Source: Actinomycetota bacterium
GTDB lineage: Bacteria > Actinomycetota > UBA4738 > HRBIN12
Assembly: GCA_046731295.1 (NCBI GenBank)
Contig: JBKPKU010000051.1
Location: 13,902 to 77,901 of the forward strand
DNA: 64,000 bases
Direction of reading: 5' to 3'
Shown: piece by piece, positions 1,794-33,049 of the stretch
Layout: each line of letters begins with the position of its first letter
How positions within the stretch are numbered: the first letter of the stretch is position 1
The notes under the pieces: model-generated
What the model saw: only the letters and a program-made list of their open reading frames with translations
Databases searched by the model: none
What the model was told of the DNA's origin: nothing
Translations under genes and position numbers: made by a program

Positions 1794-1870
1794 CCGCTGC
1801 CTCGCTTCCGATTCCGGGCTTGTGGGTAGGCTGATGGCCCGGGGCCGGCGACGGCTCCCGAACCCAGCCT

Positions 1871-3322: not shown

Positions 3323-3326
3323 GCCG

Positions 3327-4514
3327 CTACGGCCGCGGCTCCGCGCGGGCCTCCAGCACGGTCGCGAGCTCCGCGAACGCCACCTCGGGCACGTACCGGT
3401 CGCGGATCAGCGCCCGTCCCGCGTCCCGAAGGCTCGTCCACAACGCGTCGTCGGTCAGCACGCGAGCGGCCGGGCCGGCCATGGTCTCGGGACGATCCGC
3501 GACCAGCAGGTGCTCTCCGGCGACGACCTCGAGGCCCTCGGCCCCCTCGGCCGACGTGACGACCGGGAGCCCGCGCGCGAGCGCGTTCAGCACCTTGACC
3601 CGGCTGCCCGAACCCCCGACCGCCACGTCCACGAAGCAGCGCGACCGCCGGTACAGGCGCTCGTCGTCGTCGACCGGCCCGGCGTACTCGACGCCGCGCG
3701 CCCGATGGGCGAGCCGGATCAGCGACTCGGGCGCACCCGAGCCGCCGACGACGAGCCTGGCCTTCGGCACGCGTTCGAGCAGGGGAGGGAAGCCCTCGGC
3801 GATGAAGCGCGTCAGGCCCTCGGCGTTCGGCGGCCAGGACAGGGTGGCGAAGAACAGCAGGACGGGATCGGGGGCGGGGTCGAGCGGGGGGCGTTCGGCG
3901 AGCGCCGGGTCGGGGACGTTCGGCAGGATGCACACGTCCTCGGGCACCTGGCCGAGCTCCAGCAGCGCACGCCGGTCCGGTTCGGAGACGACGAACACGG
4001 TGTCGAAGCGCTCCAGGATCGACCGCTCGTAGCGGCGCACCCGGCCCGCCTCGAACCGCACCATCGCCCGGCGCGCGCGGCGACGCTCGAGGGCGGCGTG
4101 CCGCTGCCACATCACGTACTCGGCGTTGTGCTCGTGCAGCAGGCGCACGCCGGGGAAGCCCTCCGGGAGGTCCTGCGCCATGAGCCATCCGTCGACGAAC
4201 GCGAGGTCGTGGTGGCGGTCGGCGATCAGCTGCTCGATCCGTGCCCGCATCTCGCGGCTCCGGTTGCGTTGGACGCTGAGCGGGACGCCGGCCGCGTAGC
4301 TGCGCGCGAGGTTGAGGCCGGTGCGTCCGCGTTCGATCGGGACGGTGACGGTCTCGCCGTTCGCCCGCCGCCACGGGTCGGCGTCGGGGGTTCGGAACGC
4401 CGCGACGTCCACCGCGTGCTCGCGTTCGAGGAAGGAGAGCAGCGCCGCCGACTTGATCGTGCCGCCGCTGCGAGGGTCGTCGAGTCGGCGCGGCGTCAGG
4501 AACAGGATGCGCAT
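3327..4514 (-). CDS. GT4-family (GT-B fold) glycosyltransferase
   Basis: MRILFLTP start. The C-terminal half has a GT-B donor-binding pattern (GGSGSRVKVLNALARGLPVVTS). Its start lies 1 nt after the stop of the upstream tagA-like gene. Confidence 0.85.
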   Translation of the reverse strand: MRILFLTPRRLDDPRSGGTIKSAALLSFLEREHAVDVAAFRTPDADPWRRANGETVTVPIERGRTGLNLARSYAAGVPLSVQRNRSREMRARIEQLIADRHHDLAFVDGWLMAQDLPEGFPGVRLLHEHNAEYVMWQRHAALERRRARRAMVRFEAGRVRRYERSILERFDTVFVVSEPDRRALLELGQVPEDVCILPNVPDPALAERPPLDPAPDPVLLFFATLSWPPNAEGLTRFIAEGFPPLLERVPKARLVVGGSGAPESLIRLAHRARGVEYAGPVDDDERLYRRSRCFVDVAVGGSGSRVKVLNALARGLPVVTSAEGAEGLEVVAGEHLLVADRPETMAGPAARVLTDDALWTSLRDAGRALIRDRYVPEVAFAELATVLEARAEPRP

Positions 4515-4515
4515 C

Positions 4516-5265
4516 TCACGTCCGATCCACCAGCGCGAGGACCGGGAACACGAGGGTCGCGCGGGCGATGCGGGGCAGGCGCGCCGGCTCGAGCGCGAGT
4601 CGCCAGAGCCATTCCAGACCGGCCGCGTGGATCCATCCCGGCGCGCGCCGGAGCGTCCCGCCCCACATGTCGAACGCGCCCCCCACGCCCATCAGGACGC
4701 GCGCCGACGGCAGGAGCTCGGCGTGCTCGGCGATCCAGCGCTCCTGCTTCGGCGCGCCCAGTCCGACCAGCACGATCGCGGGCGACAGCGACCGGATGCG
4801 TTCCACGAGCTCGGCTCCGGCCAGTGGGTCGGCGCGGCCGTCGTCGCCGAAGGCCACGTCCGAGCCGGCGGCCTCCACGCGCAGGCCGGGGAGCGTCGAG
4901 CGCCACCGGTTCGCGGCGCGGTCGGCCGCGCCCTCCCGGCCGCCGAGCAACACCACGGACTCGCCCCTGGTGGCGGCCAGGCGCAGCAGGTCGGCGCCGA
5001 CCTCCACGCCCGGCCAGCGCCGCACGCGACGTCGGGAGCGGATCGACTCGACGAGCGCGACGCCCGTGCCGTCGGGGAGCGCGAGGTCGGCGGTGTTGAG
5101 CACCGACGCGTACCGGTGGTCGCGCCTGGCCAGCAGGAGGATCTCGGGGTTCGGGGTGAACACGCGATGCGGACGCTCGTCGTCCAGCATGCGCCCGAGC
5201 TCTCGGAGCAGCTGTCCCTCCGAGTCGAGCTCGTCCAGCTGCACGCCGAAGACGGATGGCGTCAC
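4516..5265 (-). CDS. WecB/TagA/CpsF (GT26) family glycosyltransferase
   Basis: VFTPNPEILLLARRD...LALPDGTGVAL...VVLLGGREG...IVLVGLGAPKQERWI...GVGGAFD. The ORF-track start at 5658 is an Arg-rich extension. GTG at 5265 overlaps the upstream stop (GTGA at 5262-5265). Confidence 0.8.
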   Translation of the reverse strand: MTPSVFGVQLDELDSEGQLLRELGRMLDDERPHRVFTPNPEILLLARRDHRYASVLNTADLALPDGTGVALVESIRSRRRVRRWPGVEVGADLLRLAATRGESVVLLGGREGAADRAANRWRSTLPGLRVEAAGSDVAFGDDGRADPLAGAELVERIRSLSPAIVLVGLGAPKQERWIAEHAELLPSARVLMGVGGAFDMWGGTLRRAPGWIHAAGLEWLWRLALEPARLPRIARATLVFPVLALVDRT

Positions 5266-5981
5266 GGGCGGTCGCCGGCGCCGGCGCGGGCGAAGGCCTC
5301 GTGCAGGCCCTCGGCGCGCTCGCGCAGCCGAGCCGGGACCTCGCGCCGATACCGCTCGCGGATCTCGCCCTTCATGCCGTCGCGCGTCTCGGAGGGCCTC
5401 GGCACGATGCGTTCGAGGTACTCGCCGCCGCCGCGCCGCGCGCGCCAGTCCTCTTCGATCTCGCGCAGGCACCTCGCGACGTTGTCCTGGGTCGGCTCGA
5501 ACTCGGCGAACGCGGTCCCGAACCGCGCGTTCACGCGCCGCGTGATGCGGCCGACCTCGCCGCCCACCACCTCCGCGAACGACCCGATCACGAGGTCCTT
5601 GCGGTAGGGGAGCAGCGGCTCGTGGAAGTCGACGTACCCGCGCAGCACGCCGGCGCACGTGCGCCCCGGGTGCCGGATCACGCTCGAGACCACCGCGCCC
5701 TCCGGGTCCCGGACGAGCACGAGGGCCGGCACGCCGAGTCGAATCGCCGCGATCACGTGGCCAGGCGCGTGGGTGTGGTGGGCCACCTTGAGCCGCGCCG
5801 GCTCCTGCGCGAGGTTGAACGCGGCCAGCGCGAACGACGACGCGGACCGCGGGAACGACTCGATCAGCAGATCGGTGTCCTCGGCGACGAGCTCGCCCTC
5901 GCCGCGCAGCCGCGCGAGCGGCTTGGCGAACGCCGGCCGCCGCGCGAGCCGCGTCATCACCCGATAGCGAACACGCTCCAC
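5262..5981 (-). CDS. Hypothetical protein, sulfotransferase-like (possible PAPS-binding motifs)
   Basis: IESFPRSASSFA resembles a 5'-PSB loop and LVLVRDPEGAVVSSVI resembles the RDPxxxxxS 3'-PB motif of bacterial sulfotransferases. Its stop overlaps the tagA-like start. The functional call is tentative. Confidence 0.55.
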   Translation of the reverse strand: MERVRYRVMTRLARRPAFAKPLARLRGEGELVAEDTDLLIESFPRSASSFALAAFNLAQEPARLKVAHHTHAPGHVIAAIRLGVPALVLVRDPEGAVVSSVIRHPGRTCAGVLRGYVDFHEPLLPYRKDLVIGSFAEVVGGEVGRITRRVNARFGTAFAEFEPTQDNVARCLREIEEDWRARRGGGEYLERIVPRPSETRDGMKGEIRERYRREVPARLRERAEGLHEAFARAGAGDRP

Positions 5982-6033
5982 CGGCGGATGCTACCGCTCG
6001 CCGCCGGACCGGCCGACGGCAACGAGGCCCCGG

Positions 6034-7032
6034 CTACGACGCTCCGGCGGGCACGGCGCGGGCGAAGAGCTCGGCCAACGCCTCCTCGGTCTCGAACACG
6101 ACGTCGTCCGGCCCGGCCTGCTCGGCCAGCCCGCCCGCGTTCGAGACGAGTGACGGCGTCCCCAGCCGCTGCGAGCGGGCGAGCGCCCCCGAGGACCAGG
6201 CCCCCCGGTACGGGAACACCATCCGGTCGGCGGCCTCCACCCACGCGTCGAAGTCCTCGTCGGACACGAACGCCTCGAGCAGCGTGACGCCGGGCGTGGA
6301 CGCCGCGAGCGCGCGCAGCTCCTCCACGTACCGGTCGGTGGCGTCGCTCGGGATGCGGACGGACCCGACCACGGAGAGCCGGCCCGGCGAGCCCGCGGCC
6401 CCGAACGCGCGGATCGCGCGATCGAACCCCTTGTCCGGCTGGAGGAAGCCGGCGCACACGAAGAGCGCTCCCTCCACGGCGTCGAGCCCCAGGCGTTCGC
6501 GCGCCTGCTCACGCGAGAGACGCGCATGCACCGCCACGCCCTCGGTGTGATCGATCAGCCGCCACCGTGTTCGGATCCGATACGCGTGCTCGAGCGCCAC
6601 CCGCTCGGCGTCGGTGTGGAACGCGAGTCGAGCCCGCGCGAACGCCAAGCCGAGCATCCGATAGTCGGGCCGCCAGCGGTTCGGCGGCACGTTGGCCTCG
6701 TGTAGGACGATCTCGACGTTCGAGCGGCGGAGCGTCAGGTACCACAGCGACGCAGCCGTGAGGACGTGCGCGGACGGTGAGCGGGGGCGGAAGTACAGGC
6801 CCGTCTCGTAGTGCACCACCACGCGGTCGAACCGGTCGCCGATCGCCGCCGCGTGCCGGAACGCCGCGCCGCCGATGAACGGCCTGCGAACGTCGCCGTC
6901 GCCGTCGGGCGGCGACAGCACGATTACGACGTGGCCCTCGCCCCTCAGCCGTTCGGCCTGCGCGCTCGCGTATGCCCCGATGCCGCAGTGACGAGGAGGG
7001 AAAGAGCTGACGATCAGGATCCGCTCAGGCAT
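6034..7032 (-). CDS. GT4-family glycosyltransferase
   Basis: The credible start MPERILIVSSFPPRHCGIGAYA at 7032 overlaps the upstream stop by 8 nt. The C-terminus has VFPYRGAWSSGALARSQRLGTPSLVS. The longer track ORF (to 7239) is an off-composition extension. Confidence 0.8.
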   Translation of the reverse strand: MPERILIVSSFPPRHCGIGAYASAQAERLRGEGHVVIVLSPPDGDGDVRRPFIGGAAFRHAAAIGDRFDRVVVHYETGLYFRPRSPSAHVLTAASLWYLTLRRSNVEIVLHEANVPPNRWRPDYRMLGLAFARARLAFHTDAERVALEHAYRIRTRWRLIDHTEGVAVHARLSREQARERLGLDAVEGALFVCAGFLQPDKGFDRAIRAFGAAGSPGRLSVVGSVRIPSDATDRYVEELRALAASTPGVTLLEAFVSDEDFDAWVEAADRMVFPYRGAWSSGALARSQRLGTPSLVSNAGGLAEQAGPDDVVFETEEALAELFARAVPAGAS

Positions 7033-8173
7033 CGGCCGCCTCGCGCAACACCGCCGCCGTCCGGCGCGCGGTCTCGTCCCACGCGTAGCCGGATGCACGC
7101 TCGATCCCGGCGGCGCGGAGCCGGGCGCGCAGCCGGGCGTCGGCAAGGACCGTTGCGATGCGTTCCGAGAGATCGTCGGGGTCGGCGGGGTCGACGAGCA
7201 CGCCGGCGCCTTCCACGAGCTCGGGGAGCGCGGCGACATCGGAGGCGATCACCGGCGTGCCGCACGCCATCGCCTCGAGTACCGGGAGGCCGAACCCCTC
7301 GTACAGCGACGGGTACACGAGCGCGTCCGCGCCGCCCAGGAGCGCGGCCTTGGTCTCGTCCGGGACGTAGCCGGTCAGCACGACCCGTCCGAGCGAGCCG
7401 GGCGGGACGCCGTCCAGGGCCTCGCGGACGCGGTCGCGACCGTCGGGGTCCCACGGACGCCCGCCCACCAGCACCAGCGTGGGCCGCTCCTCCGCCGGCA
7501 TCCGCCCGACGGCCTCGGCAAGCGCCGGCAGGTTCTTGCGCCGGTCCAGCCCCAGGAACACCAGGTACGGGCCGTCGATGCCGAACCGGCGGCGGACGCC
7601 CCGGACCTCGTCGTCGCGCGGTGGCCGGAACGTGAGCGTGTCGACCCCCAGCGGGATCGTCGCGATCCGCCCGGGCTCCACCCCGTAGAGCTCGATCACG
7701 TCCCGGCGCGTCGCCTCGGAGGGGACGATCACTCGCGTCGCGACACGCAGCGTGCGTTCTAGACCCGTGAGCCACCACGGCACGGTCTGCGGGGCGGTGT
7801 CGGGGTGGAAGCGGAACCCGAGGTCGTGCACGGTCACCACCTGACGCTTCGCGCGCGTCGGCGCAGGGACGAAGTTCGGCCCGAACAGGACGTCGAACCG
7901 CACGAACCACTCGACGCGCGGGAGGTCCAGCCGCGCGGTCATCCGGTTGAACAGCTGCGCCGGGATCGGCGTGCCGCGTTCGCGCAGGTTCGGCGCGGGG
8001 ACGTCGCGGAAGAAGCGCCTGCCGCGCAGGAACCCGCCGGCGTTCAGGTACCACGCCACGTAGTCCGACGCGGGATCCAGGACCGGCAGGCGGCGGATCA
8101 GGTGGTCGGCGTAGTAGCCGACGCCGGTCTTCTCGGGCGCCGTCGCCGGTCGGGCGTCGATCGCGACCCGCAT
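7025..8173 (-). CDS. GT4-family glycosyltransferase
   Basis: MRVAIDARPATAPEKTGVGYY start at 8173. It also shows VVTVHDL...YLVFLGLDRRKNL...LVYPSLYEGFGLPVLEAMACGTPVIAS (EX7E-type motif). Confidence 0.88.
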   Translation of the reverse strand: MRVAIDARPATAPEKTGVGYYADHLIRRLPVLDPASDYVAWYLNAGGFLRGRRFFRDVPAPNLRERGTPIPAQLFNRMTARLDLPRVEWFVRFDVLFGPNFVPAPTRAKRQVVTVHDLGFRFHPDTAPQTVPWWLTGLERTLRVATRVIVPSEATRRDVIELYGVEPGRIATIPLGVDTLTFRPPRDDEVRGVRRRFGIDGPYLVFLGLDRRKNLPALAEAVGRMPAEERPTLVLVGGRPWDPDGRDRVREALDGVPPGSLGRVVLTGYVPDETKAALLGGADALVYPSLYEGFGLPVLEAMACGTPVIASDVAALPELVEGAGVLVDPADPDDLSERIATVLADARLRARLRAAGIERASGYAWDETARRTAAVLREAADA

Positions 8174-8295
8174 CGCTAGCCGGTTCGGGGGCTGGTCTCG
8201 CCCGCGTGCGTTTCCATACGGCGTGCATCGTACCGACGCTGTCTGTCCGAACATGTTGCGATGGAGCGACGAAAACCGGGGCGGAAGGTCGGCGA

Positions 8296-8308
8296 TGATA
8301 CGCTCGCC
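8296..8308 (+). promoter_or_regulatory. Putative extended -10 promoter (TGA-TACGCT) giving a near-leaderless transcript for the 8314 gene
   Basis: TGATACGCTCGCC is identical to the 13-mer at 23889-23901. The TANNNT hexamer at 8299-8304 ends 9 nt before ATG 8314, and no SD sequence lies between. Confidence 0.4.
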
Positions 8309-8313
8309 CACCG

Positions 8314-8703
8314 ATGCCGAACGAGCCCGACGACCAGGCCGACGACGCACGATCGGTGCTCGAACGCGAGCTGTACTGGGGCGTCGACCCGAGCTCGGCC
8401 GCCGACCAGAGCACGCGCCAGATCCGGATCGCCCTGCACGACTTCGCCGCCGGGATGCGCGCGGACGAGCGCTCGCGCATCCCGCGGCGCGAGCCGCTGC
8501 TGGGCTCGGCCTCGTCGTGGAAGCGCCAGGTCAAGGGCTGGTTCTACGTCGTCCTTCGTCCGGTGACCCACCGCTACGACCGACTGCTCGGCGATCTCGC
8601 GACCCTGAACCGGATGCTGGCCGAGCGCCTGGCCGACGCGGAGGCGGAGATCGAGCGGCTGCGCGGCGCATCGGAGGAGCGCGGGTCCTCGGGGCAGACC
8701 TGA
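8314..8703 (+). CDS. Hypothetical protein with C-terminal coiled-coil-like segment
   Basis: Protein-like composition (LERELYWGVDP...WFYVVLRPVTHRYDRLLGDLATLNRMLAERLADAEAEIERLR). Its stop overlaps the next ATG (TGATG at 8701-8705). First gene of the plus-strand glycan operon. Confidence 0.55.
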   Translation: MPNEPDDQADDARSVLERELYWGVDPSSAADQSTRQIRIALHDFAAGMRADERSRIPRREPLLGSASSWKRQVKGWFYVVLRPVTHRYDRLLGDLATLNRMLAERLADAEAEIERLRGASEERGSSGQT

Positions 8704-9752
8704 TGCGCATCGCGGTCTGCCATCCGCAGACGCCGTTCGTGCGCGGCGGCGCCGAGACGCACGCCGAGCAGCTCGTGCGCGCGCTCCGAAACTCCGGACA
8801 CGAGGCCGAGCTCGTGCTGGTCGCCGGCAAGTGGTACCCGGGCGCCGAGCTGGTGCACCAGATGGCGGTGTGGCGGAGCATGGAGCTGTCCGAATCCAAC
8901 GGGCTTCCGATCGACGCCGTGATCCCGCTGAAGTTCCCGGCGTACCTGCTCAACCACGAGCGCAAGATCGTCTGGCTGATCCACCAGCACCGCACCGCAT
9001 ACGAGCTGTGGGATCACCCGCAGTACGCGGACCTCGCCCGACAGCCCGAGGGCGTGCAGGTGCGCCAGATGATCCACGCGGCCGACCGCGTCGCGCTCGG
9101 CGAGGCCAAGCGCGTGTTCGCGAACTCGAAGAACGTGCAGCGCCGGCTGTGGGACTCGCTGCGGATCCCCTCCGAGCCGCTGTACCACCGCTCGCCGCTC
9201 ACGCAGGCGCTCCTCGAAGAGGAGCCGGGGCCGTACCGGGACGGGATCGTGTTCCCGAGCCGGTTCGAGAGCCTGAAGCGCCAGTCGATCGTGGTCGACG
9301 CGATGCGCCACGTGCGCGGCGACATACGCCTGGTCCTGGTGGGTCGCGGCCCCGACGAGCGGGCGCTCCGACGGCAGATCCAGGAGCACGACCTCGGCGA
9401 GCGCGTGTCGATCGAGGTCGGCGTCTCGGACGAGCGGCTGCGCGAGCTGTTCCTGGGCGCGCTCGGCGTGTACTACGGGCCGTTCGACGAGGATTACGGG
9501 TACGTGACGATCGAGGGGTTCGCGGCGCACCGGCCGGTGGTGACGCTCACCGACAGCGGCGGCCCGCTCGAGTTCGTGATCGACGGGGAGACCGGCTTCG
9601 TGACGGAGCCGGACCCCCGCGCGATCGCCGAGGCGTTCGATCGCCTGTACGCCGATCGAGCCCTCGCCGCCCGGATGGGCGAGACGGGCCGCGCGATGGT
9701 CGAGCGCGAGATCCCCGACTGGCCGGAGGTGGTCGCACGGTTGCTCGGCTGA
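8703..9752 (+). CDS. GT4-family glycosyltransferase
   Basis: MRIAVCHPQTPFVRGGAETHAEQL...VFPSRFESLKRQ...YGPFDEDYGYVTIEGFAAHRPVVT. The track ORF from 8223 is an upstream extension in the same frame. Confidence 0.85.
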   Translation: MRIAVCHPQTPFVRGGAETHAEQLVRALRNSGHEAELVLVAGKWYPGAELVHQMAVWRSMELSESNGLPIDAVIPLKFPAYLLNHERKIVWLIHQHRTAYELWDHPQYADLARQPEGVQVRQMIHAADRVALGEAKRVFANSKNVQRRLWDSLRIPSEPLYHRSPLTQALLEEEPGPYRDGIVFPSRFESLKRQSIVVDAMRHVRGDIRLVLVGRGPDERALRRQIQEHDLGERVSIEVGVSDERLRELFLGALGVYYGPFDEDYGYVTIEGFAAHRPVVTLTDSGGPLEFVIDGETGFVTEPDPRAIAEAFDRLYADRALAARMGETGRAMVEREIPDWPEVVARLLG

Positions 9753-9778
9753 TCGAGCTGCTCACCACGCCGCGACCC

Positions 9779-11107
9779 ATGGCCGATCCGGTCGTGCCGA
9801 GGGTCGCATTCGTCTCGCCGATGCCGCCGGCGACAACCGGGATCGCGACGTACGCGGCCTCGGTGCTCGCGGGCCTCGAGCGCAGCGGCTACCGGCGGCG
9901 CCGCCAGATGGACGTGCTCTGGCCGGTCAGGCCCAGGCACGACCTCGCGATCGCACGGTACCGGCTGGGCGTGTACCACATCGGCAACAACGTCGAGTTC
10001 CACGGCGACATCTACCGCCTGGCGTCGCTGCGCGACGGGGTGGTGGTCCTGCACGACCTCGGGCTGGACGACCTCGTGCGGGGCCTGGTGGACCGCGGCG
10101 ATCCGCTCGGCTACCGCGCGGCGCGCGAGGCGCTGGTCGGCGCCGACCGTCTCACCCTGGCCGAGGCAAGGGACAACGAGCCGCTCGCGTGGCCGTGGTG
10201 CGCGCACATCGCGCGCATCGCGAAGTCGGTCATCGTCCACTCGGCCTTCTGCAAGCGCTACCTGGAGGACCTCGGGTGCCGGACGCCGGTGTTCGTCGTC
10301 CCGCACCCGCCCGTCGAACGCGAGGCGGACCTCCGCCTCGCGGCCCAGCGCGCGCCCGCGATCCGCGCGCGGCTCGGTCTCCGGAATGAGGACGTGCTGG
10401 TGGTCGGGGCGGGAGACCTGAACCCGGCCAAACAGCTCGAGGCGCTGGTGGCGGCCTTCGCGCGCCTCGACGAACGCGTGCACCTCGCGCTGGTCGGCCG
10501 GCGGATCCCGACGTTCGACCCGGACGCGCTCGTGCGCGGCTCGGGGCTCGGATCGCGGGTGACGCTCGCCACCGACGTCTCGGACGAGGCCTTCCGCGGG
10601 TGGTTGACCGCCGCCGATGTGGTGGTGGACCTGCGCTTCCCGCACCGCGGCGAGGTGAGCGGGACGCTGATGCGGGCCATGCAGGTCGGCCGGCCCACGC
10701 TGGTGAGCGCGACGGGGACCTACCTCGTCCTCCCCGAGGACGCGGTCGTACGGATCGCCCCGGGCCGGGCCGACCCCCAGGAGCTGGCGGAGGTCCTGTC
10801 GGGCCTGGCGGACCGGCCCGAGGCGCGGGCCAGGATCGGGGAGTCGGCGCGCCGGCACGTCGAGACCACCGCGAGCCTGGAGCGGACGGCCGCCGGCTAC
10901 GAGGAGGCGATCGAGTTCGCATTGCGGCTCGTGCAGGACCCCCGGCGCCTGGCGCTCACGCGGTGGGCGCAGGCGCTGAACGACCTCGGGATCACGCCCG
11001 AGGGCCTGGACGAGGACTACGGCCTGTCCTACGTGCGCGCGCTGGCCGAGATCGAGATACAGGCGGGCCCGTCGCGTTCGGCCGGCGAATCCACGCCAAC
11101 GTCATAG
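9779..11107 (+). CDS. GT4-family glycosyltransferase
   Basis: MADPVVPRVAFVSPMPPATTGIATYA...VVLHDL...VVVDLRFPHRGEVSGTLMRAMQVGRPTLVS. The start is chosen at the first ATG after the preceding stop and could lie slightly upstream. Confidence 0.8.
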   Translation: MADPVVPRVAFVSPMPPATTGIATYAASVLAGLERSGYRRRRQMDVLWPVRPRHDLAIARYRLGVYHIGNNVEFHGDIYRLASLRDGVVVLHDLGLDDLVRGLVDRGDPLGYRAAREALVGADRLTLAEARDNEPLAWPWCAHIARIAKSVIVHSAFCKRYLEDLGCRTPVFVVPHPPVEREADLRLAAQRAPAIRARLGLRNEDVLVVGAGDLNPAKQLEALVAAFARLDERVHLALVGRRIPTFDPDALVRGSGLGSRVTLATDVSDEAFRGWLTAADVVVDLRFPHRGEVSGTLMRAMQVGRPTLVSATGTYLVLPEDAVVRIAPGRADPQELAEVLSGLADRPEARARIGESARRHVETTASLERTAAGYEEAIEFALRLVQDPRRLALTRWAQALNDLGITPEGLDEDYGLSYVRALAEIEIQAGPSRSAGESTPTS

Positions 11108-11177
11108 TTCGAGGGAACCCCGTTGCTAGACTCGGCCGGCCGGCCCGGGCCGAACAGGCCCGCCGAGCGCGGAGCGC

Positions 11178-12065
11178 ATGGCTGCCACCACCCAGACCGT
11201 CGAGCGCACCTCCGAATCGCCGCATCTCCGGGTCGGCGAGCGGCTGCGCGTGCTGATCGCGCACCGCGAGATCCTGGCCAACCTGGTCCGCAAGGAGCTC
11301 AAGGTCAAGTACGTGGCCTCGGTGCTCGGCGCGGTGTGGTCGCTGCTGAACCCGCTCGTGTATCTGGCGGTGTTCACGTTCGTCACGCGGGTGCTCGGCA
11401 ACGGGCTGCCGGACTACCCCGTGTACCTGCTCTCGGGCCTGCTGGCCTGGAACCTGTTCTCGGCCTCCACGATCGGCGGCTCGCGTTCGGTGATCGACAA
11501 CGCGAACCTGGTCAAGAAGGTCGCGTTCCCGCGCGAGATCCTGCCGCTCGCGGCGATCGGCGTGGCGCTGGTCGACTACGGGCTGCAGATGATCGTGCTG
11601 CTGATCTTCATCGTCGCGACGGTCGGCCTGCACGTACCAGACTTCGCGCTGCTGCCGCTGGCCTTCGCCGCGCTGCTCGTGTTCACGTGTGCGCTGACGG
11701 CGTGGATCGCCGCGCTGAACGTGCGCTACCGCGACGTCGGCCACCTGCTGAACATCGGCCTGCTGGTGTGGTTCTGGGTCACGCCGATCGTGTACGCGAG
11801 CGGGCTGGTCCAGCAGCACCTGGGCGATCGCGACGTCCTGAAGGTCCTGTACTTCTGCAACCCGCTGACCGCGGTGGTCGAGGGGATGCACCGCGCGCTG
11901 TACGGCGTGGGCGCGCTGCCGGACGGGGGAACCGCCACATGGAACATGCCGCTCGGCACGCTGACGTTGGTGCTCGGGACGGTGCTCGTCGGGTCGATGA
12001 TCTTCCTGCGCTTCACGTGGGGATCGTTCTTCGCACGTTCGGGCGACTTCGCGGAGGAGCTGTGA
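11178..12065 (+). CDS. ABC-2 type polysaccharide/teichoic-acid export permease (Wzm/TagG-like)
   Basis: LANLVRKELKVKYVASVLGAVWSLLNPL... followed by six hydrophobic segments, typical of an ABC-2 permease. Confidence 0.9.
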   Translation: MAATTQTVERTSESPHLRVGERLRVLIAHREILANLVRKELKVKYVASVLGAVWSLLNPLVYLAVFTFVTRVLGNGLPDYPVYLLSGLLAWNLFSASTIGGSRSVIDNANLVKKVAFPREILPLAAIGVALVDYGLQMIVLLIFIVATVGLHVPDFALLPLAFAALLVFTCALTAWIAALNVRYRDVGHLLNIGLLVWFWVTPIVYASGLVQQHLGDRDVLKVLYFCNPLTAVVEGMHRALYGVGALPDGGTATWNMPLGTLTLVLGTVLVGSMIFLRFTWGSFFARSGDFAEEL

Positions 12066-13252
12066 GCGTGACGGCCGCGCCGGCGATCGAGGTCCACGCC
12101 GTCTCCAAGCGCTTCCACGTGTTCCGCGAGAAGCCCTCGACGATCAAGCAACGCCTGCTGACCTCCCGCGCGCGAGCCGACGACTTCTGGGCGCTCCGCG
12201 AGATCGACCTGGACATCGGCGAGGGGACGACGTTCGGGCTGATCGGGCACAACGGCTCGGGCAAGACGACGCTGCTCAAGTGCGTCGCCGGCATCCTGCG
12301 CCCGACCTCGGGCACGATCCGACAGCGCGGCCGGCTGGCGGCGCTGCTCGAGCTCGGCGCAGGGTTCCACCAGGAGCTCACCGGTCGCGAGAACGTCTAC
12401 CTGAACGCCTCGTTCCTCGGCCTGTCCCGCAGGCGGACCGACGCCGTGTTCGACGAAGTCGTGGCGTTCGCCGAGCTCGAGGACTTCATCGACAACGAGG
12501 TGAAGTTCTACTCGTCGGGGATGCTCGTGCGACTGGGGTTCGCGGTCGCCGTGCACGTCGATCCCGACGTGCTCCTGATCGACGAGGTGCTGGCGGTGGG
12601 GGACGAGGCCTTCCAGGCCAAGTGTCTCGAACGCGTCCGGGCCTTCCAGCGCGAGGGCCGGACGATCGTCCTGGTGACCCACGCGTTGGACACCGTGATC
12701 GAGACCTGCGACCGCGCGGCCATGCTGCATCACGGCGAGCTGCACGCCGTGGGGATGCCGGACGACGTGGTGCGTGAGATGCGCTACGTCCTGCTGGGCG
12801 TGACCGACCCGAACTTCGTGCCCGAGGAGGGCACGCGCGAGGCCGAGATCGCCGAGGTGCAGATCGTGCGGCCGAACGGCGCGAGCGACGGCGGCTTCCT
12901 GCGCGGCGACACGATCGCGATCGTGGTGGACGTTCGGCAGAACGAGCCGGTCGACGACCTCGACGTGGACTTCGCCGTCCTGGACGGGGCCACGAACTAC
13001 CCCGTTCTGGAGGCGCGCACCTCCCGCGTGGGCCTCGACCTGGGACGGTTCGACAAGAAGCGCGTCCGCTTTAGGATCGAGGGCTTCCCGTACGACCCCG
13101 GCAAGTACTGGGTCACGGTCGGGCTCTCCAGCCGCCGGACCGGGCACCTGTACCACGTGCAGACGCAGCGCTACCTCTTCGAGGTCTACGACGCACCACG
13201 GATCCAGGACCGCGTCGACGTGTCCGTCCGGGTGGAGGTCGACGACCTGTGA
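12062..13252 (+). CDS. Polysaccharide export ABC ATPase (Wzt/TagH-like) with about 150-aa C-terminal extension
   Basis: Walker A GHNGSGKTTLLK, signature YSSGMLVRLGF, Walker B LLIDEVLAVGD. The GTG start overlaps the permease stop (GTGA at 12062-12065). The extra domain spans about 12794-13252. Confidence 0.9.
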   Translation: MSVTAAPAIEVHAVSKRFHVFREKPSTIKQRLLTSRARADDFWALREIDLDIGEGTTFGLIGHNGSGKTTLLKCVAGILRPTSGTIRQRGRLAALLELGAGFHQELTGRENVYLNASFLGLSRRRTDAVFDEVVAFAELEDFIDNEVKFYSSGMLVRLGFAVAVHVDPDVLLIDEVLAVGDEAFQAKCLERVRAFQREGRTIVLVTHALDTVIETCDRAAMLHHGELHAVGMPDDVVREMRYVLLGVTDPNFVPEEGTREAEIAEVQIVRPNGASDGGFLRGDTIAIVVDVRQNEPVDDLDVDFAVLDGATNYPVLEARTSRVGLDLGRFDKKRVRFRIEGFPYDPGKYWVTVGLSSRRTGHLYHVQTQRYLFEVYDAPRIQDRVDVSVRVEVDDL

Positions 13253-13680
13253 GCGAACCTCGGACCCACCCCACGCCCGCGCAGACGAAAGGGAGCAACG
13301 CCATGCTGATCGCGCTCATCTTGTTCTCGGTGACGATGGCCGCGGTGGCCCAGCTCACGCTCAAACACGGCATGAACCTCGTGAACGACGAGCTGGCGCC
13401 CGCGAAGTTCTCGCTGGACGGGCCGTCGCTTCGCGTCGTGATCCAGCAGCCGTACGTGTGGAGCGGGCTGTTCCTGTTCGGCCTGTCCGCGCTCGTCTGG
13501 TTGATGGTGCTGTCGCGGGCGTCGCTGTCGTTCGCCTACCCGTTCGCGGCGCTCACCTACGTGCTGATCCTGCTGTTCGACCAGTTCGTGCTGGAAGAGA
13601 CCGTCCCGCCACTTCGGTGGGCCGGCGTCGCGTTCATCGGCATCGGCATCATCCTGGTCTCCCAGACGAAGCACTCGTGA
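13249..13680 (+). CDS. Small multi-pass membrane protein, EamA/SMR-like (ArnE/ArnF- or GtrA-like flippase candidate)
   Basis: Four hydrophobic segments (MLIALILFSVTMAAVAQLTL..., GLFLFGLSALVWLMVL, AYPFAALTYVLILLF, WAGVAFIGIGIILV). There are 4-nt overlaps at both ends. The true start may be the internal ATG at about 13303. Confidence 0.65.
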   Translation: MSEPRTHPTPAQTKGSNAMLIALILFSVTMAAVAQLTLKHGMNLVNDELAPAKFSLDGPSLRVVIQQPYVWSGLFLFGLSALVWLMVLSRASLSFAYPFAALTYVLILLFDQFVLEETVPPLRWAGVAFIGIGIILVSQTKHS

Positions 13681-14693
13681 AGGCCGTCGTCCTGGTCGGC
13701 GGACAGGGGACGCGGCTGCGGCCGCTGACCGAGACCGTCAAGAAGGAGCTCCTGCCGCTGGTCGATCGCCCGATCCTGGACCACACGCTCGACCGGCTGG
13801 TGCGCCACGGCGTCCACGAGGTCGTCCTGTCGAGCTCGTACCTGGAGGAGACGTTCCGCGCGTTCCTCGATGCCCGGCACGGCGACCCGCGCATCTCCTG
13901 GATCACGGAGAGCGAGCCGCTCGACACCGGCGGTGCGATCGTCAACGCGCTCCCGGCGCTGGACACCGACGAGCCGTTCCTCGCCCTGAACGGCGACATC
14001 CTGACCGACCTCGACGTCACGCGGATGCTTGCGTTTCACCGACAACGGAAGGCAACCGCGACGATCGCGCTCACGCACGTCGAGGACGCGCGGCCCTACG
14101 GGCTCGTGCCGCTCGACGGGGACGGCCGGGTCGTGGAGTTCCGCGAGAAGCCCGCGGACCTCGTGCCCGGCGACATCAACGCGGGAACGTACGTGCTGGA
14201 GCCGTCCGCGCTCCGGGCATGGGAGCGGGGCGTGAGCGTCTCGATCGAGCGCGTGATCTTCCCGACGCTGATCGAAGACGGCCGCCCGCTGTTCGGGTTC
14301 CTCTCGGACGCGTATTGGAGGGATCTGGGAACGCCGCAGGCCTACCTCCAGGCCACCTTCGACCTGCTGGACGGGCTGGTCGCGGGGGAGCCGGCGTTCG
14401 AGGCGCCGTTCGTCGCGGACGGCGGCCGGATCGACACCGGCGCCGACGTCGACCGGCACGTCGTGGTCGGGCCGGGCACGTCCATCGAGGCCGGCTCGAG
14501 CGTGACCGGGTCGGTCCTGCACGATCGCGTCCGCGTGGCGAACGGTGCCACCGTGTCGGGCTGCGTCGTTGGGCGCGGATCTGAGATCCTGGGCGCCCGC
14601 GTCTCTGGCTCGATCCTCGGCGAACGCGTTCGCGTCCTCCCGGGCGTCGAGCTCGTCGACGCGCGGGTCGACCCCGGTACGACCGTCCCGTAG
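13677..14693 (+). CDS. Mannose-1-phosphate guanylyltransferase-type sugar nucleotidyltransferase with C-terminal left-handed beta-helix
   Basis: VKAVVLVGGQGTRLRPLTETVKKELLPL...LNGDILTDLD...EKP...NAGTYVLE. The GTG start overlaps the upstream stop (GTGA at 13677-13680). Confidence 0.8.
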   Translation: MKAVVLVGGQGTRLRPLTETVKKELLPLVDRPILDHTLDRLVRHGVHEVVLSSSYLEETFRAFLDARHGDPRISWITESEPLDTGGAIVNALPALDTDEPFLALNGDILTDLDVTRMLAFHRQRKATATIALTHVEDARPYGLVPLDGDGRVVEFREKPADLVPGDINAGTYVLEPSALRAWERGVSVSIERVIFPTLIEDGRPLFGFLSDAYWRDLGTPQAYLQATFDLLDGLVAGEPAFEAPFVADGGRIDTGADVDRHVVVGPGTSIEAGSSVTGSVLHDRVRVANGATVSGCVVGRGSEILGARVSGSILGERVRVLPGVELVDARVDPGTTVP

Positions 14694-14775
14694 ATCCGCC
14701 GCCCCGAACCCACGGTCGCCCCGAACCATGTGATACGTTGCGTGACTCCCGATCACGCTCCTAGCAATCCTGAAG

Positions 14776-16308: not shown

Positions 16309-16320
16309 CCCGGGGCGGGC

Positions 16321-17061
16321 CTAGGGTTGGAGCAAAGGCCCGAGGAGCCCACGCGGCGCCTCGGGCGCGATCGAGGTCCCTCGGTAAGCGTCGATGAAGC
16401 CGCGAGCGATCGCGACCGCCTCCTCGGGCGTGACCGAGGCCGGACAGAACCACCGCGTGTTCCATGCGAGGAGCACGAGCCCGTGCTCGACCGAGAGCGT
16501 CGGGTAGGGGGCCATGATGACGCGCTTTTCCCCGTCGGCGAGCGCCTCCACGCGCCGAATCACGTCGTCCGACGGGCCGCCCTGCGCCGCCGGCAGGTAG
16601 TACACGACCACGTACGCGTGTTCGAGGTTGTGGACCGCGCGGGTCTCGGGGACGGGCTCGGGGTAGACGTGGGGATCGGGGGGCAGCGGCGAGGGGTCGT
16701 GCGGGCCCGCGGCCGCGGGAGGGTTCGGGTAGTCGTACGACTCCCCGGCGGCCAGGTGCGTCCGGGACGGGGTCACGATCACCGGCTGCTCGAGGTTGGC
16801 GCACCCGGCCGCCTTGGCAGCCGAACGGGCCTCGGCCGAGATCTCACCCGGAGAGGTGGTCCGATAGAACAACAGCCACCCGAGCGCGATCACCGCGGCG
16901 ACCGCGACGATCCGAACCCAGGGAGAGGTTCGCCGGGGCGGCGGCTGCGCGGGTCGGCGCTTGCTGGTGGTCGGCCGGGCCGTCTTCGTGGCGCCCGACG
17001 CCTTGGCGGCGGGGTTCGCATGCGGCCGGGATCGCGGGCGGCGCTTGCGCTTGGTGGCCAC
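16321..17061 (-). CDS. DUF3105-type membrane-anchored protein
   Basis: GTG start at 17061. Lys/Arg-rich tail (VATKRKRRPRSRP...), one TM segment, then AAAGPHDPSP...AVHNLEHAYVVVYY. The upstream part of track ORF 16321..17538 is an artefact. Confidence 0.78.
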   Translation of the reverse strand: MATKRKRRPRSRPHANPAAKASGATKTARPTTSKRRPAQPPPRRTSPWVRIVAVAAVIALGWLLFYRTTSPGEISAEARSAAKAAGCANLEQPVIVTPSRTHLAAGESYDYPNPPAAAGPHDPSPLPPDPHVYPEPVPETRAVHNLEHAYVVVYYLPAAQGGPSDDVIRRVEALADGEKRVIMAPYPTLSVEHGLVLLAWNTRWFCPASVTPEEAVAIARGFIDAYRGTSIAPEAPRGLLGPLLQP

Positions 17062-17072
17062 CTCGCCGCCGC

Positions 17073-17915: not shown

Positions 17916-17932
17916 CTGCCTCGCCGAGTGGA

Positions 17933-26658: not shown

Positions 26659-26886
26659 ATGCATCACTACATCCCATGGCAGGAGCGAGCACGGTGCAGG
26701 CAGCACGATCCGGAGGTGTTCTTCCCCGAGAAGGGAGGTTCATCGAGGGAGGCGAAGCGGATCTGCGCGGACTGCCCGGTTCGCATCGAGTGCCTCAACT
26801 ACGCCCTTCGTCGCGATGAGCGGTACGGGGTGTGGGGAGGGATGAGCGAACGAGAGCGGCGACGCCTGAAGCGCATGGCGTCCTGA
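26659..26886 (+). CDS. whiB: WhiB-family Fe-S redox-sensing transcription factor (WhiB2/WhmD-like by neighbourhood)
   Basis: ARCRQHDPEVFFPE...AKRICADCPVRIECLNYAL...YGVWGGMSERERRRLKR shows the four-Cys pattern and GVWGG turn. Confidence 0.92.
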   Translation: MHHYIPWQERARCRQHDPEVFFPEKGGSSREAKRICADCPVRIECLNYALRRDERYGVWGGMSERERRRLKRMAS

Positions 26887-26906
26887 ACATCGAAAGGGGG
26901 TGACCC

Positions 26907-33043: not shown

Positions 33044-33049
33044 TGCCCC

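Follow-up and report, generated by a model that had tools for sequence, protein, structure and literature searches.

Related Glycan Systems

The streptococcal and lactococcal rhamnose-rich wall polysaccharides (GacO/GacB…, RgpC/D, LCP) are ABC-dependent and LCP-attached, neutral or decorated, and they stand in for teichoic acids. Wall teichoic acid of Bacillus and Staphylococcus involves TagO, TagA, TagB, TagD/F or TarIJL, TagGH and TagTUV, and the E. coli O8/O9a polymannose involves the GT4 enzymes WbdA/B/C, WbdD, a Wzm/Wzt transporter with a carbohydrate-binding domain (CBD) and ManB/ManC. The synechan xss cluster of Synechocystis reportedly directs a sulfated exopolysaccharide, with sulfotransferase genes within the polysaccharide locus. 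In Mycobacterium tuberculosis, we take WecA to be Rv1302, RmlD Rv3266c, Wzm/Wzt Rv3783/Rv3781 and ManB Rv3264c. The logic of its arabinogalactan pathway is WecA-WbbL(Rv3265c)-Wzm/Wzt-Lcp1(Rv3267) (PMC7502851). Sulfated glycans of actinomycetes have been predicted from genes alone, as for wps-1 of Actinoplanes missouriensis (PMC13390465).

Here, we analyzed a 64-kb window (the whole stretch of DNA studied) from an uncultured high-GC Actinomycetota. With moderate confidence, we read the interval 3327-14693 and the LCP gene beside it as a wall-glycopolymer locus that would operate by the steps proposed below and would have evolved by exchange of a gene cassette.

Gene Content of the Locus

Gene models for the window were based on third-position GC and a codon-usage score. 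Gene calling placed the 13 genes of the locus, LCP included, where the preliminary description had them:

1871-3322, plus strand: LCP (LytR-CpsA-Psr), candidate glycopolymer-peptidoglycan ligase, 483 aa (PF03816, E 4e-41)
3327-4514, minus strand: GT4e, GT4 glycosyltransferase, 395 aa, last gene of the minus operon (Glyco_trans_1_4, E 1e-16; Glyco_transf_4)
4516-5265, minus strand: TagA/WecG/CpsF-family GT26 glycosyltransferase, 249 aa (PF03808, Glyco_tran_WecG, E 1.7e-46)
5262-5957, minus strand: unk231, divergent PAPS-type sulfotransferase-like protein, 231 aa (fold, motifs, genomic association)
6034-7032, minus strand: GT4d, GT4-like glycosyltransferase, 332 aa (Glyco_trans_1_4, E 1e-8; Glycos_transf_1, E 7e-7)
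7025-8173, minus strand: GT4c, GT4 glycosyltransferase, 382 aa, first gene of the minus operon (Glyco_trans_1_4, E 2e-28; Glyco_transf_4, E 7.5e-14)
8174-8313, no strand: divergent intergenic spacer, 140 bp (from gene models; two-way promoters presumed)
8314-8703, plus strand: unk129, small helical protein, 129 aa (no family match)
8703-9752, plus strand: GT4a, GT4 glycosyltransferase, 349 aa (Glycos_transf_1, E 1e-23)
9779-11107, plus strand: GT4b, GT4 glycosyltransferase, 442 aa (Glyco_trans_1_4, E 5e-10; Glycos_transf_1, E 5e-9)
11178-12065, plus strand: Wzm, ABC-2 permease, 295 aa (PF01061, ABC2_membrane, E 6e-16)
12062-13252, plus strand: Wzt, ABC ATPase with C-terminal CBD, 396 aa (ABC_tran, E 4.5e-20; Wzt_C)
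13303-13680, plus strand: EamA/ArnE-ArnF-like four-helix membrane protein, 125 aa (EamA 25.8 bits, below gathering score)
13677-14693, plus strand: ManC-type sugar-1-phosphate nucleotidylyltransferase with left-handed beta-helix C-terminus, 338 aa (PF00483, NTP_transferase, E 5e-45, plus hexapeptide matches)

Identical genes were called in independent assemblies, and those called on contig JBKOVE010000029.1 (GCA_046723795.1) match the window in lengths and order. The coordinates confirm the 140-bp divergent spacer as well as the convergence of LCP and GT4e, whose stops are separated by 4 nt (3323-3326). Gaps within both operons range from -8 to +70 nt: there is an overlap of 4 nt between the start of TagA/WecG and the stop of unk231, and one of 8 nt between GT4d and the stop of GT4c. 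If unk231 instead began at the GTG at 5981, it would be 239 aa long. The spacer presumably holds promoters for both directions; it contained no match to the sigma-70 consensus, which says little for Actinomycetota. The same 11-gene order was found in one related locus, L036 (58-80% protein identity), and recurs partly in dozens of other metagenome-assembled genomes (MAGs), so the arrangement is not due to chance and the two-operon locus is real.

Pfam and NCBIfam matches agree with the gene set originally proposed, namely a TagA/WecG-type enzyme, five GT4s and Wzm/Wzt with an LCP gene at the border. LytR_cpsA_psr, Glyco_tran_WecG, GT4 domains in all five glycosyltransferases, ABC2_membrane, ABC_tran, Wzt_C, NTP_transferase and hexapeptide all exceeded the Pfam gathering scores, as did TIGR00350 (LCP, 127.8 bits) and TIGR00696 (TagA/WecG, 134 bits) their cut-offs of 62.3 and 69; the TarA equivalog gave TagA/WecG 119 bits, under its cut-off of 350. 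The solved structures closest to GT4c were MshA, SPS-like, GlgM and PimA. GT4a is the best-conserved glycosyltransferase in the locus, sharing 64-83% identity with its counterparts in T-type as well as R-type relatives (cassette types described below), and GT4b accompanies it and unk129 in relatives. The clade-restricted unk129, which matched no Pfam or NCBIfam family, lies directly 5' of GT4a wherever it is found (linked in at least 15 loci). Its 137 homologues are all about 125-180 aa long and unnamed or "hypothetical", with no fusions seen among them, and they share the invariant motifs LxRELYW and RYDRL. The AF2 model (pTM 0.35) is all-helical, with a long C-terminal helix at residues 68-126 (59 residues; pLDDT 86-93 over residues 90-120).

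The top NCBIfam match of Wzm, under its cut-off, was the galactan-export permease Wzm/RfbD, and TagH models matched the window transporter with E 1e-54 to 1e-55. Wzt was most similar in the PDB to a 404-aa "ABC transporter" chain (8dku/7k2t, E 2e-67, residues 9-357), presumably the full-length A. aeolicus Wzt. Wzt_C was matched at residues 255-376 with 42.2 bits, above the gathering score of 30.4, and the CBD alone resembled the solved isolated CBDs 8dky/6o14 weakly. This domain had been overlooked in the preliminary description.

The EamA-like protein fell just under the EamA gathering score of 28.2 bits and matched ArnF (E 6e-14) and ArnE (E 3.5e-11), both under cut-off. It is 74-96% identical to its best 120 clusters and its gene separates Wzt from ManC in almost every relative; it is a candidate polyprenyl-phosphate-sugar flippase or transporter accessory. 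The best NCBIfam model for the ManC-type enzyme was NF052502 (Rv3264c-type mannose-1-P guanylyltransferase), with 296 bits, below the cut-off of 440, and its gene anchors the synteny in every relative. We assign the ArnE/F-like protein and ManC to the conserved frame and not to the cassette. A PMM gene lies 19 kb from the locus. The polymer had been expected to be mannose-rich, an expectation left unsupported since ancestral synteny accounts for where ManC lies and the GT4 sequences do not reveal which donor sugars they use.

The larger ORFs of the window were scanned with Pfam or NCBIfam, and about ten short ORFs by eye only. The scanned proteins included no WecA/MraY-type or Bac_transf primase, no TagB/F, TagD or TarIJL, no Wzx, no Wzy_C (O-antigen ligase/oligosaccharyltransferase) and no outer-export gene, and no UDP-ManNAc epimerase was found in the window. 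Priming transferase, polyol-phosphate and Wzx/Wzy genes are thus missing from this set, as first stated, which argues that the product is not a classical teichoic acid.

Comparison With Described Pathways

The window shares with the mycobacterial arabinogalactan linker/galactan system the neighbourhood lcp … manC … whiB, fbiA/B/C and, here from genes alone, the logic of a primer of GlcNAc-PP-prenol type, a second sugar in the linker, polymerisation in the cytoplasm, export by Wzm/Wzt and ligation by LCP (PMC7502851). At the very site of wbbL, loci related to the window have rmlABCD and a GT2. The window differs in having neither rml nor GT2 there, with the GT26 TagA/WecG in the presumed linker role, an in-locus transporter with a CBD, GT4s instead of GlfT-type GT2s and an additional sulfotransferase-like gene. 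A TagA-family enzyme, a TagGH-homologous transporter and LCP are common to the window and wall teichoic acid; however, no TagB/TagF glycerophosphotransferase or CDP-polyol synthesis gene was found among the scanned proteins, the chain would be built by GT4s, the window Wzt has a CBD that TagH lacks, and negative charge, if any, would come from sulfate rather than phosphodiester. Several GT4s, a CBD-bearing Wzt, an in-locus manC and a PMM gene nearby recall E. coli O8/O9a, but the window has no WbdD-like kinase/methyltransferase with a coiled-coil ruler, its product would go to LCP and not WaaL, and its manC is placed by ancestral synteny. The streptococcal and lactococcal polysaccharides are most like the rml-carrying (R-type) relatives, whereas the window cassette has no rhamnose genes; their side chains are GacH-type glycerophosphate or GtrB/GT-C, in contrast to the predicted cytoplasmic sulfotransferase-like decoration of the window. 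Sulfotransferase genes lie inside the polysaccharide locus in synechan xss and wps-1, as in the window. Both are Wzx/Wzy-type secreted exopolysaccharide systems with canonical PF00685/IPR-recognised sulfotransferases, while the window is ABC-dependent, stands beside LCP and has a sulfotransferase-like family with no curated model.

A Divergent Sulfotransferase-Like Family

No match to unk231 was obtained in Pfam, NCBIfam or PDB sequence searches, every curated sulfotransferase model failed, and its family of 3,238 clusters is unannotated. When its AF2 model (pLDDT 83) was compared with the PDB using Foldseek, all 50 matches listed were sulfotransferases, with no kinases among them; the best E was 1.5e-4, with a modest TM of 0.34-0.45 and an rmsd of about 9 Å. 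The protein contains the motifs PRSASS (R37), THAP (H63) and RDPEGAVVS (R83, S91). Across a 108-sequence alignment of the family, R83 is invariant and R37, H61/H63 and S91 are near-invariant, and the motifs, in PxSGxT-like, THxP-like and RxPxDxxxS-like forms, are colinear and make up the most conserved columns. An arginine occupies the position of the canonical 5'-PSB lysine. The family profile weakly matched three colinear segments of SULT2A1, and hhalign with two canonical sulfotransferases aligned at most the 3'-PB motif. In four of five loci of distant relatives, a canonical PF00685/PF13469 sulfotransferase is encoded 1-3 genes away, in polysaccharide loci. Family members are also found fused to Wzz/BY-kinase and PAP2 domains, and unk231 is triplicated in tandem in L010, L022 and L042.

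The fold, the three motifs and the association with canonical sulfotransferase genes uphold the original label of a sulfotransferase-like gene, and the window polymer is probably sulfated via unk231, judging from the model and the motifs. We consider it rather unlikely that the polymer is neutral, with unk231 being either an inactive scaffold or some different modifying enzyme that binds nucleotides: the empty searches, the modest TM, the limited hhalign alignment and the arginine at the lysine position would fit this, but the structural matches listed were sulfotransferases throughout, the colinear hallmark motifs are the best-conserved part of the family, and the family is strongly tied to canonical sulfotransferase genes. 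A more specific role for sulfate is suggested by the transporter, as a Wzt CBD in characterised systems accompanies chain-end capping, the known caps being methyl, phospho-methyl and Kdo (PMC9445017). No capping enzyme of known type was found beside the CBD-bearing Wzt of the window locus, where unk231 is the sole non-GT modifying enzyme; sulfate could then be a non-reducing-end cap that halts chain growth and forms the epitope for the CBD, a new cap chemistry. Yet the CBD sequence does not follow the presence of unk231. L019, whose interval is fully covered, has no unk231 and L022 has three copies, yet the two are 86% identical in the CBD and 83% in the NBD, and the window CBD is 79% identical to those of the R-type loci L038/L046, with no unk231 seen within reach, and 81% identical to that of the T-type L063. 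The tandem triplication is also easier to reconcile with decoration at several sites than with one cap. Sulfate as an export cap is disfavoured, and we hold it to be quite improbable.

A Conserved Frame With a Variable Cassette

We compared the window with 40-odd loci from MAGs of related uncultured Actinomycetota, in 10 of which the LCP-to-ManC interval was fully covered. The frame LCP … Wzm-Wzt-EamA-[GT2]-ManC-…-fbiBAC is kept across these loci, the interval measures 7-10 kb in all 10 fully covered ones, and in each of these LCP flanks the cassette whatever its type (the window, L019, L025, L027, L031, L032, L034, L035, L063 and L065). Variation is confined to the glycosyltransferase cassette, for which about 40 loci showed three mutually exclusive types:

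TagA + sulfotransferase: the window (T-type)
rmlABCD + GT2, at the Mycobacterium wbbL position: many relatives (R-type)
GT4-only

All loci seen to carry the TagA-unk231-GT4e module belong to the subclade closest to the window (the window, L036, L063-L066), and the genes of the module are kept together beside LCP in L063 and L065. GC3 is 0.92-0.96 in every gene of the locus, GC matches that of housekeeping genes and codon-usage divergence is within the range of other window genes of similar length. Nothing in the base composition points to recent transfer, and no tRNA, integrase or flanking repeats/scars were found at the cassette borders. The Mycobacterium neighbourhood of LCP and manC-type genes described earlier was verified (Lcp1 is Rv3267 and WbbL Rv3265c; PMC7502851), and downstream the window also has fbiB, fbiA, fbiC and a WhiB-like ORF.

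The stretch of roughly 10 kb from LCP to ManC had been proposed to be a lineage-specific insertion. What stands of this is the variability of the glycosyltransferase cassette and the restriction of TagA-unk231-GT4e to the nearest subclade; the conserved frame and interval length and the native composition contradict the rest. A recent, horizontally acquired insertion would accord with the M. tuberculosis lcp1-manB interval, which by Rv3264c-Rv3267 numbering presumably holds only rmlD and wbbL, and with the narrow distribution of the module, but Wzm-Wzt-EamA adjoins ManC in nearly all relatives, the interval stays within 7-10 kb wherever it is fully covered, composition resembles that of housekeeping genes and the borders lack marks of integration. 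We give it little credence, and for the transporter half it is largely refuted by these sequence comparisons. Instead, the conserved frame, the native composition and the rmlABCD + GT2 genes of relatives at the wbbL position identify, at the level of synteny, the ancestral actinobacterial lcp-(linker genes)-manC-…-whiB-fbi region, an ancestral wall-polymer site whose frame is fixed and whose glycosyltransferase cassette has been swapped within the clade. The same ancestry bears on attachment to peptidoglycan. A glycan made and exported alike could stay unattached, as a capsule/exopolysaccharide, a lipid-anchored lipoglycan or a protein or S-layer glycan. Synteny of LCP, ManC, whiB and fbi is ancestral in Actinomycetes (PMC7502851), so adjacency is no proof of coupling and is weaker functional evidence than it appears, and LCP lies on the opposite strand in a separate transcription unit. 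Against this, the variable cassette has LCP at its flank in each of the fully covered loci, no Wzy_C-type ligase/oligosaccharyltransferase or outer-export gene was present among the scanned window proteins, and the Mycobacterium LCP at the same position is the arabinogalactan ligase (PMC7502851). We regard an unattached glycan as unlikely.

Proposed Pathway

For the wall-attached polymer that we favour, a phosphoglycosyltransferase encoded outside the window would supply a polyprenyl-PP-sugar primer, to which TagA/WecG, a GT26 enzyme by family, would add the second sugar of the linkage unit. The five cytoplasmic GT4s would provide adaptor and repeat sugars, with unk129-GT4a-GT4b as a putative chain-building module, as its conservation suggests. 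While still lipid-linked and cytoplasmic, the glycan would be O-sulfated by unk231, which would make the polymer anionic. The finished chain would leave via Wzm/Wzt, the Wzt CBD engaging a chain-end or backbone epitope, and the adjacent LCP would move it onto peptidoglycan. The locus would thus represent a variant of a known wall-polymer pathway, with a sulfotransferase-like family that lacks a curated model.

Organization of the locus

Gene calling in the window (G+C content of 70.6%) relied on third-position GC and on codon-usage scoring. The locus runs from an LCP gene to a ManC-type gene and comprises the following features, where unk231 and unk129 denote a 231-aa and a 129-aa protein and GT4a to GT4e the five GT4 glycosyltransferases.

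Features of the locus (window coordinates, strand, predicted product)
1871-3322, plus, LCP; its end and that of GT4e are 4 nt apart
3327-4514, minus, GT4e, last gene of the minus-strand operon in transcription order
4516-5265, minus, TagA/WecG, fourth
5262-5957, minus, unk231, sulfotransferase-like, third
6034-7032, minus, GT4d, second
7025-8173, minus, GT4c, first
8174-8313, 140-bp spacer from which the two operons diverge
8314-8703, plus, unk129, first gene of the plus-strand operon
8703-9752, plus, GT4a
9779-11107, plus, GT4b
11178-12065, plus, Wzm
12062-13252, plus, Wzt
13303-13680, plus, EamA-like protein
13677-14693, plus, ManC-type enzyme, last gene of the plus-strand operon

Several gene junctions overlap by 1-8 nt, and the overlap between Wzm and Wzt is 4 nt. 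Public gene calls on JBKOVE010000029.1 (NCBI GCA_046723795.1) and on three Logan assemblies gave equal gene lengths in an equal order. Together with our own calls, they bear out the preliminary description of two divergent operons around a short spacer, with the LCP gene ending next to GT4e. A scan for sigma-70 promoters and terminators over positions 1700-16400 was uninformative.

Predicted enzymes for polymer synthesis, export and attachment

The locus had been proposed to direct an ABC-transporter-dependent wall glycopolymer attached by an LCP enzyme, and in outline it was read correctly: it is a real feature with the logic of an ABC-transporter/LCP wall polysaccharide. The LCP protein matched PF03816 (141 bits) and TIGR00350 (127.8 bits, cut-off 62.3), and its conserved adjacency to the variable gene cassette supports a predicted role in transferring the polymer to peptidoglycan. 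The TagA/WecG protein (249 aa) matched PF03808 (WecG/TagA/CpsF; 158.5 bits, gathering score 27.4) and, in NCBIfam, TIGR00696 (134 bits, cut-off 69), an agreement at the superfamily level; it scored under the cut-offs of both the TarA and the WecG equivalog models of NCBIfam. All five glycosyltransferases fell into GT4-type Pfam families, Wzm into PF01061 (ABC2_membrane) and Wzt into PF00005 (ABC_tran), each above the gathering score. Wzt also carries, at residues 255-376, a Wzt_C carbohydrate-binding domain (CBD; PF14524, 42.2 bits, gathering score 30.4) that had not been mentioned before. Its best PDB match was to 404-aa "ABC transporter" chains (8dku/7k2t; residues 9-357, E = 2e-67), which we take to be full-length A. 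aeolicus Wzt, the organism not being named in the match table; other best matches included TagH/TarH and mycobacterial RfbE. The ManC-type protein has a nucleotidyltransferase plus LbH architecture (NTP_transferase and hexapeptide C-terminus, above gathering score). Its best model by far was NF052502 (Rv3264c-type mannose-1-phosphate guanylyltransferase), at 296 bits under a cut-off of 440.

Pfam or NCBIfam scans of proteins of the 64-kb window, with about ten short ORFs instead read by eye, revealed no WecA/MraY- or WbaP-type primase and no TagB/F (PF04464), TagD, TarIJL or CDP-polyol genes. A Wzx flippase and a Wzy polymerase (Wzy_C) were likewise missing from the locus and from the scanned proteins. 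The gene for the initiating phosphoglycosyltransferase is usually unlinked in the prototypes from E. coli, Bacillus and Mycobacterium. As previously suggested, the product is not a classical teichoic acid, since TagB/F and CDP-polyol genes are missing from the scanned set. Nor is it orthologous to any polymer characterised so far. The locus logic is that of known ABC-transporter/LCP wall polysaccharides and would leave the known pathway logic unchanged. The suggestion that the polymer is rich in mannose was not supported. PDB searches with GT4a and GT4c returned enzymes for Glc, GlcNAc and Man and thus do not settle the donor sugars; for the GT4s, the donors of the nearest solved enzymes are UDP-Glc, UDP-GlcNAc, ADP-Glc or GDP-Man, and the presence of ManC is explained by synteny, so that sugar composition cannot be read from these genes.

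A large family of sulfotransferase-like proteins

No match to unk231 was found in Pfam (to E = 10), NCBIfam or, by sequence, the PDB, and searches of these databases with either the single sequence or a close-family profile gave nothing useful. Likewise, curated sulfotransferase models (PF00685, PF13469, PF03567 and others) matched neither unk231 nor ten distant members of its family. An AlphaFold (AF2) model built on 45 homologues (pLDDT 83, pTM 0.82) was compared with the PDB using Foldseek, and all 50 of the matches listed were sulfotransferases (best E = 1.5e-4, probability 0.99-1.00), with modest superposition (TM 0.34-0.45). The hallmarks of sulfotransferases are the most conserved columns in an alignment of 108 diverse family members. 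A 5'-PSB-like loop follows strand 1 (P36-R37-S-A-S40-S41; family consensus FPRSGNTF, compared with the canonical PKSGTT), with Arg where the canonical motif has Lys. The segment T62-H63-A-P resembles the THLP motif of cytosolic SULTs, which contains the catalytic His, and a 3'-PB-like motif after strand 3 (R83-D-P-E-G-A-V-V-S91) resembles RNPxDxxVS. R83 does not vary among these 108 members, and R37, H61, H63 and S91 are each kept in at least 90% of them. With human SULT2A1, the family profile gave a weak but colinear alignment over three corresponding segments (E = 0.06-0.27); with hhalign, its comparison with the canonical sulfotransferases of two distant loci (L067 and L068) recovered the 3'-PB motif alone, or nothing.

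Genomic context also ties the family strongly to sulfotransferases. In four of the five distant members whose contigs were read (loci L067, L068, L070 and L071), a canonical PF00685/PF13469 sulfotransferase lies 1-3 genes away within a Wzx/Wzy-type polysaccharide locus. A WecG-family gene is also found nearby in L067 and L071. Some family members are also fused to PAP2 or to a Wzz/BY-kinase co-polymerase. Based on predicted fold, three hallmark motifs and association with canonical sulfotransferases, unk231 is probably a PAPS-type sulfotransferase of compact and divergent form, in line with the original guess.

When 1.84 billion representative proteins, clustered at 50% identity, were searched with a profile, 3,238 clusters were recovered at E <= 1e-3, of which 2,546 also passed E <= 1e-10, which points to a large, unannotated family. 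The close homologues were all unnamed or "hypothetical", those with an organism label coming from Actinomycetota MAGs, and the distant relatives were all named "hypothetical". Tandem triplets of family members, 40-50% identical to the window protein, occur in related loci L010 (4334-6586), L022 (1451-3685) and L042 (about 1257-3425), which suggests multi-site modification of the glycan. A 268-aa protein in the corresponding slot of locus L015 was considered as a counterpart and found to be unrelated to unk231.

Two small proteins of the plus-strand operon

The 137 homologues of unk129 are clade-restricted, all about 125-180 aa long and free of fusions, with the invariant motifs LxRELYW and RYDRL. 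The gene always precedes GT4a and overlaps its start. The model of unk129 is helical, with a 59-residue C-terminal helix that is confident over residues 90-120 and a pTM of just 0.35. The earlier label of coiled-coil protein is plausible.

The EamA-like protein (125 aa, four hydrophobic segments visible in its sequence) scored below the cut-offs for ArnF (52.5 bits, cut-off 99), ArnE (43.3, cut-off 92) and EamA (25.8, cut-off 28.2). ArnF and ArnE are the subunits of the Und-P-Ara4N flippase. No other product of the locus is as well conserved as the EamA-like protein (74-96% identity in the 120 best clusters), and a homologue search returned close relatives alone, with no functional hint. Its gene (13303-13680, plus strand) is flanked by Wzt and ManC in almost every relative. 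In ABC-dependent O-antigen loci, three-component systems for periplasmic glycosylation have been found whose flippases have four helices (PMC11127046). The ArnE/F-like protein of the window recalls these flippases, but the locus lacks a polyprenyl-phosphate-sugar synthase or GT-C partner. The protein may flip lipid-linked sugars, or it may be a third exporter component that has so far gone unrecognised.

A fixed frame with a variable cassette

A ManC scan of GTDB species representatives provided 58 loci, about 42 of them from uncultured Actinomycetota MAGs, onto which we mapped the window proteins and the extra genes of the relatives. The best full-length ManC identity was 67%, indicating that this set holds no close cultured relative of the lineage. 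The loci share an invariant frame of LCP … Wzm-Wzt(CBD)-EamA-[GT2]-ManC-SpoIID/LGFP-DUF3105-permease-FbiB-FbiA-FbiC, with an LCP-to-ManC interval of 7-10 kb in all ten fully covered loci. In the window, the region at 14776-18673 encodes an LGFP-repeat protein with a SpoIID domain and a 280-aa protein flanked by two DUF3105 paralogues; this block is directly downstream of ManC in most relatives. Three types of cassette lie between LCP and ManC.

Cassette types
T: GT4e-TagA-unk231 adjoining LCP; the window, L036 and L063-L066
R: rmlA, rmlB, rmlC-like and rmlD, together with a GT2 (about 290 aa) that lies between EamA and ManC; at least 10 loci
G: GT4 genes only; L019, L021, L022, L025, L034 and L042

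The R-type rmlA was above its cut-off (418 bits, cut-off 320), and every rml-bearing locus has the GT2. In the mapped loci, TagA was never found together with rml genes or GT2, and the module unk129-GT4a-GT4b is common to T and many R loci. By flanking genes (FbiB, FbiC and permease, 78-85% identity), close relatives of the window are L005, L038 and L046. R-type loci are among them, so cassettes have been exchanged among near relatives. The predicted linkage-unit type appears to switch by cassette at a fixed locus.

The roughly 10 kb between LCP and ManC had been viewed as a lineage-specific insertion. Recent horizontal acquisition was rejected because of native composition and conserved synteny: GC3 of the locus (0.92-0.96) is the same as that of housekeeping genes such as secA, and its codon-usage divergence is within the range seen for similarly long genes elsewhere in the window. 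At the cassette borders, scans for repeats and tRNAs revealed neither flanking repeats nor a tRNA or integrase. A better description is a clade-wide expansion of an ancestral wall-polymer locus with subclade-specific cassette replacement.

The site can be related to Mycobacterium. By gene numbering, Rv3264c (manB), Rv3265c, Rv3266c (rmlD) and Rv3267 are presumably contiguous in M. tuberculosis. In view of this contiguity of lcp1, rmlD, wbbL and manB, and of the fbiB, fbiA and fbiC genes and WhiB-like ORF downstream in the window, the site corresponds to the ancestral actinobacterial linker/ligase locus. GlcNAc-PP-decaprenol is the product of WecA (Rv1302) in M. tuberculosis and receives rhamnose through WbbL (Rv3265c); the candidates for export are Rv3781/Rv3783, and Lcp1 (Rv3267) joins arabinogalactan to peptidoglycan (PMC7502851). 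The R-type relatives resemble this arrangement, whereas the T-type window has a GT26 enzyme where their GT2/rhamnose module sits. The relatives' GT2 has weak similarity to TIGR01556, and a PDB search with it found no WbbL structure; with no solved WbbL to compare, its assignment as a WbbL orthologue stays positional.

Proposed pathway and possible role of sulfation

In the best-supported pathway, which we propose here, an unlinked primase would make a polyprenyl-PP-sugar, to which TagA would add the second sugar. The GT4 enzymes would then build adaptor and chain, and unk231, as a predicted sulfotransferase, would sulfate the glycan in the cytoplasm before export by Wzm/Wzt and attachment to peptidoglycan by LCP.

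Characterised CBD-bearing Wzt proteins recognise a cap at the non-reducing end, which is methyl, phospho-methyl or Kdo (PMC9445017). No chain-terminating methyltransferase, kinase or Kdo transferase of known type was found in the window, where the sole capping candidate is the sulfotransferase-like gene. Sulfate could accordingly be the cap that the CBD recognises, but the CBD shows no co-variation with this gene. Between L019, which has no unk231, and L022, which has three copies, the CBD is 86% and the ATPase domain 83% identical, and the window CBD is 79% identical to that of R-type L038 and 81% to that of T-type L063. This independence of CBD identity from the presence of unk231 disfavours sulfate as a cap, and sulfation is more likely to be a variable decoration. 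Loci L063 and L065 encode a SAM methyltransferase, possibly a chain-end capping enzyme. Genes for PF04185 phosphoesterases (phospholipase C/acid phosphatase family) occur in L063 (6590-8780), L065 (6486-8723), L027 (3777-6523) and L017; both kinds of gene are absent from the window.

Other features of the window

A second conserved cell-envelope block follows the fbi genes (27370-34993, plus strand) and encodes a 1022-aa GT2, also seen in L014, L031 and L041, together with a DUF5719 protein, an L,D-transpeptidase and a phosphomannomutase. The apparent 918-bp gap between fbiC and this GT2 holds a WhiB-like ORF with four Cys and a GVWGG motif (about 26659-26886, plus strand) and an ORF of Lys/Ala/Arg-rich repeats resembling histone-like tails (about 26904-27257, plus strand). 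The prfB ORF (45261-46133, plus strand) matched the RF2 model only from position 75, and 170 nt upstream there is a canonical site for +1 frameshifting, CTTTGAC (45086-45092), an arrangement that looks like programmed RF2 frameshifting. A 793-aa ORF with a weak C-terminal YfhO (GT-C-like) match (48138-50519, minus strand) contains, on the same strand, a tRNA-Pro(cgg) predicted by ARAGORN (48558-48638); one of these two calls is probably wrong. FtsE and FtsX (50725-52278) are just upstream of a SmpB-like ORF (52317-52793, plus strand), which is followed by a tmRNA gene (52824-53177, plus strand) with the tag ADSEYALAA.

Implications for actinobacterial wall polymers

Sulfated bacterial polysaccharides are still described as rare and essentially confined to cyanobacteria, and those of actinomycetes have been predicted from genes alone (PMC13390465). 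The locus adds a probable sulfotransferase from a large family that lacks a curated model, the possibility that Actinomycetota link a sulfated polymer to their peptidoglycan, and a fixed site at which cassettes switch the type of linkage unit. As a joint reading, tentative and held with more doubt than confidence, this lineage may anchor a sulfated polysaccharide to peptidoglycan by the ABC-transporter/LCP route, as an anionic wall polymer that replaces phosphate-based teichoic acid. In the same reading, unk231 would be the first protein to be recognised in a compact family (about 235 aa, more than 3,000 sequence clusters, no Pfam model) that serves across bacteria as a marker of sulfated-glycan loci of both the ABC- and the Wzy-dependent kind, and cassettes for TagA-type and WbbL/rhamnose-type linkage units would replace each other at one site among close relatives.

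If true, sulfation would be placed in a peptidoglycan-linked wall polymer, and a family of about 3,200 clusters now annotated as "hypothetical" would be exposed and could mark sulfated glycan loci. The lcp/manC wall-polymer locus would act like an O-antigen locus, with a fixed frame and swappable cassettes in which even the type of linkage-unit enzyme is replaced. Such a finding would bear on the evolution of Gram-positive wall chemistry, on phage receptors and on the substrate range of LCP enzymes.
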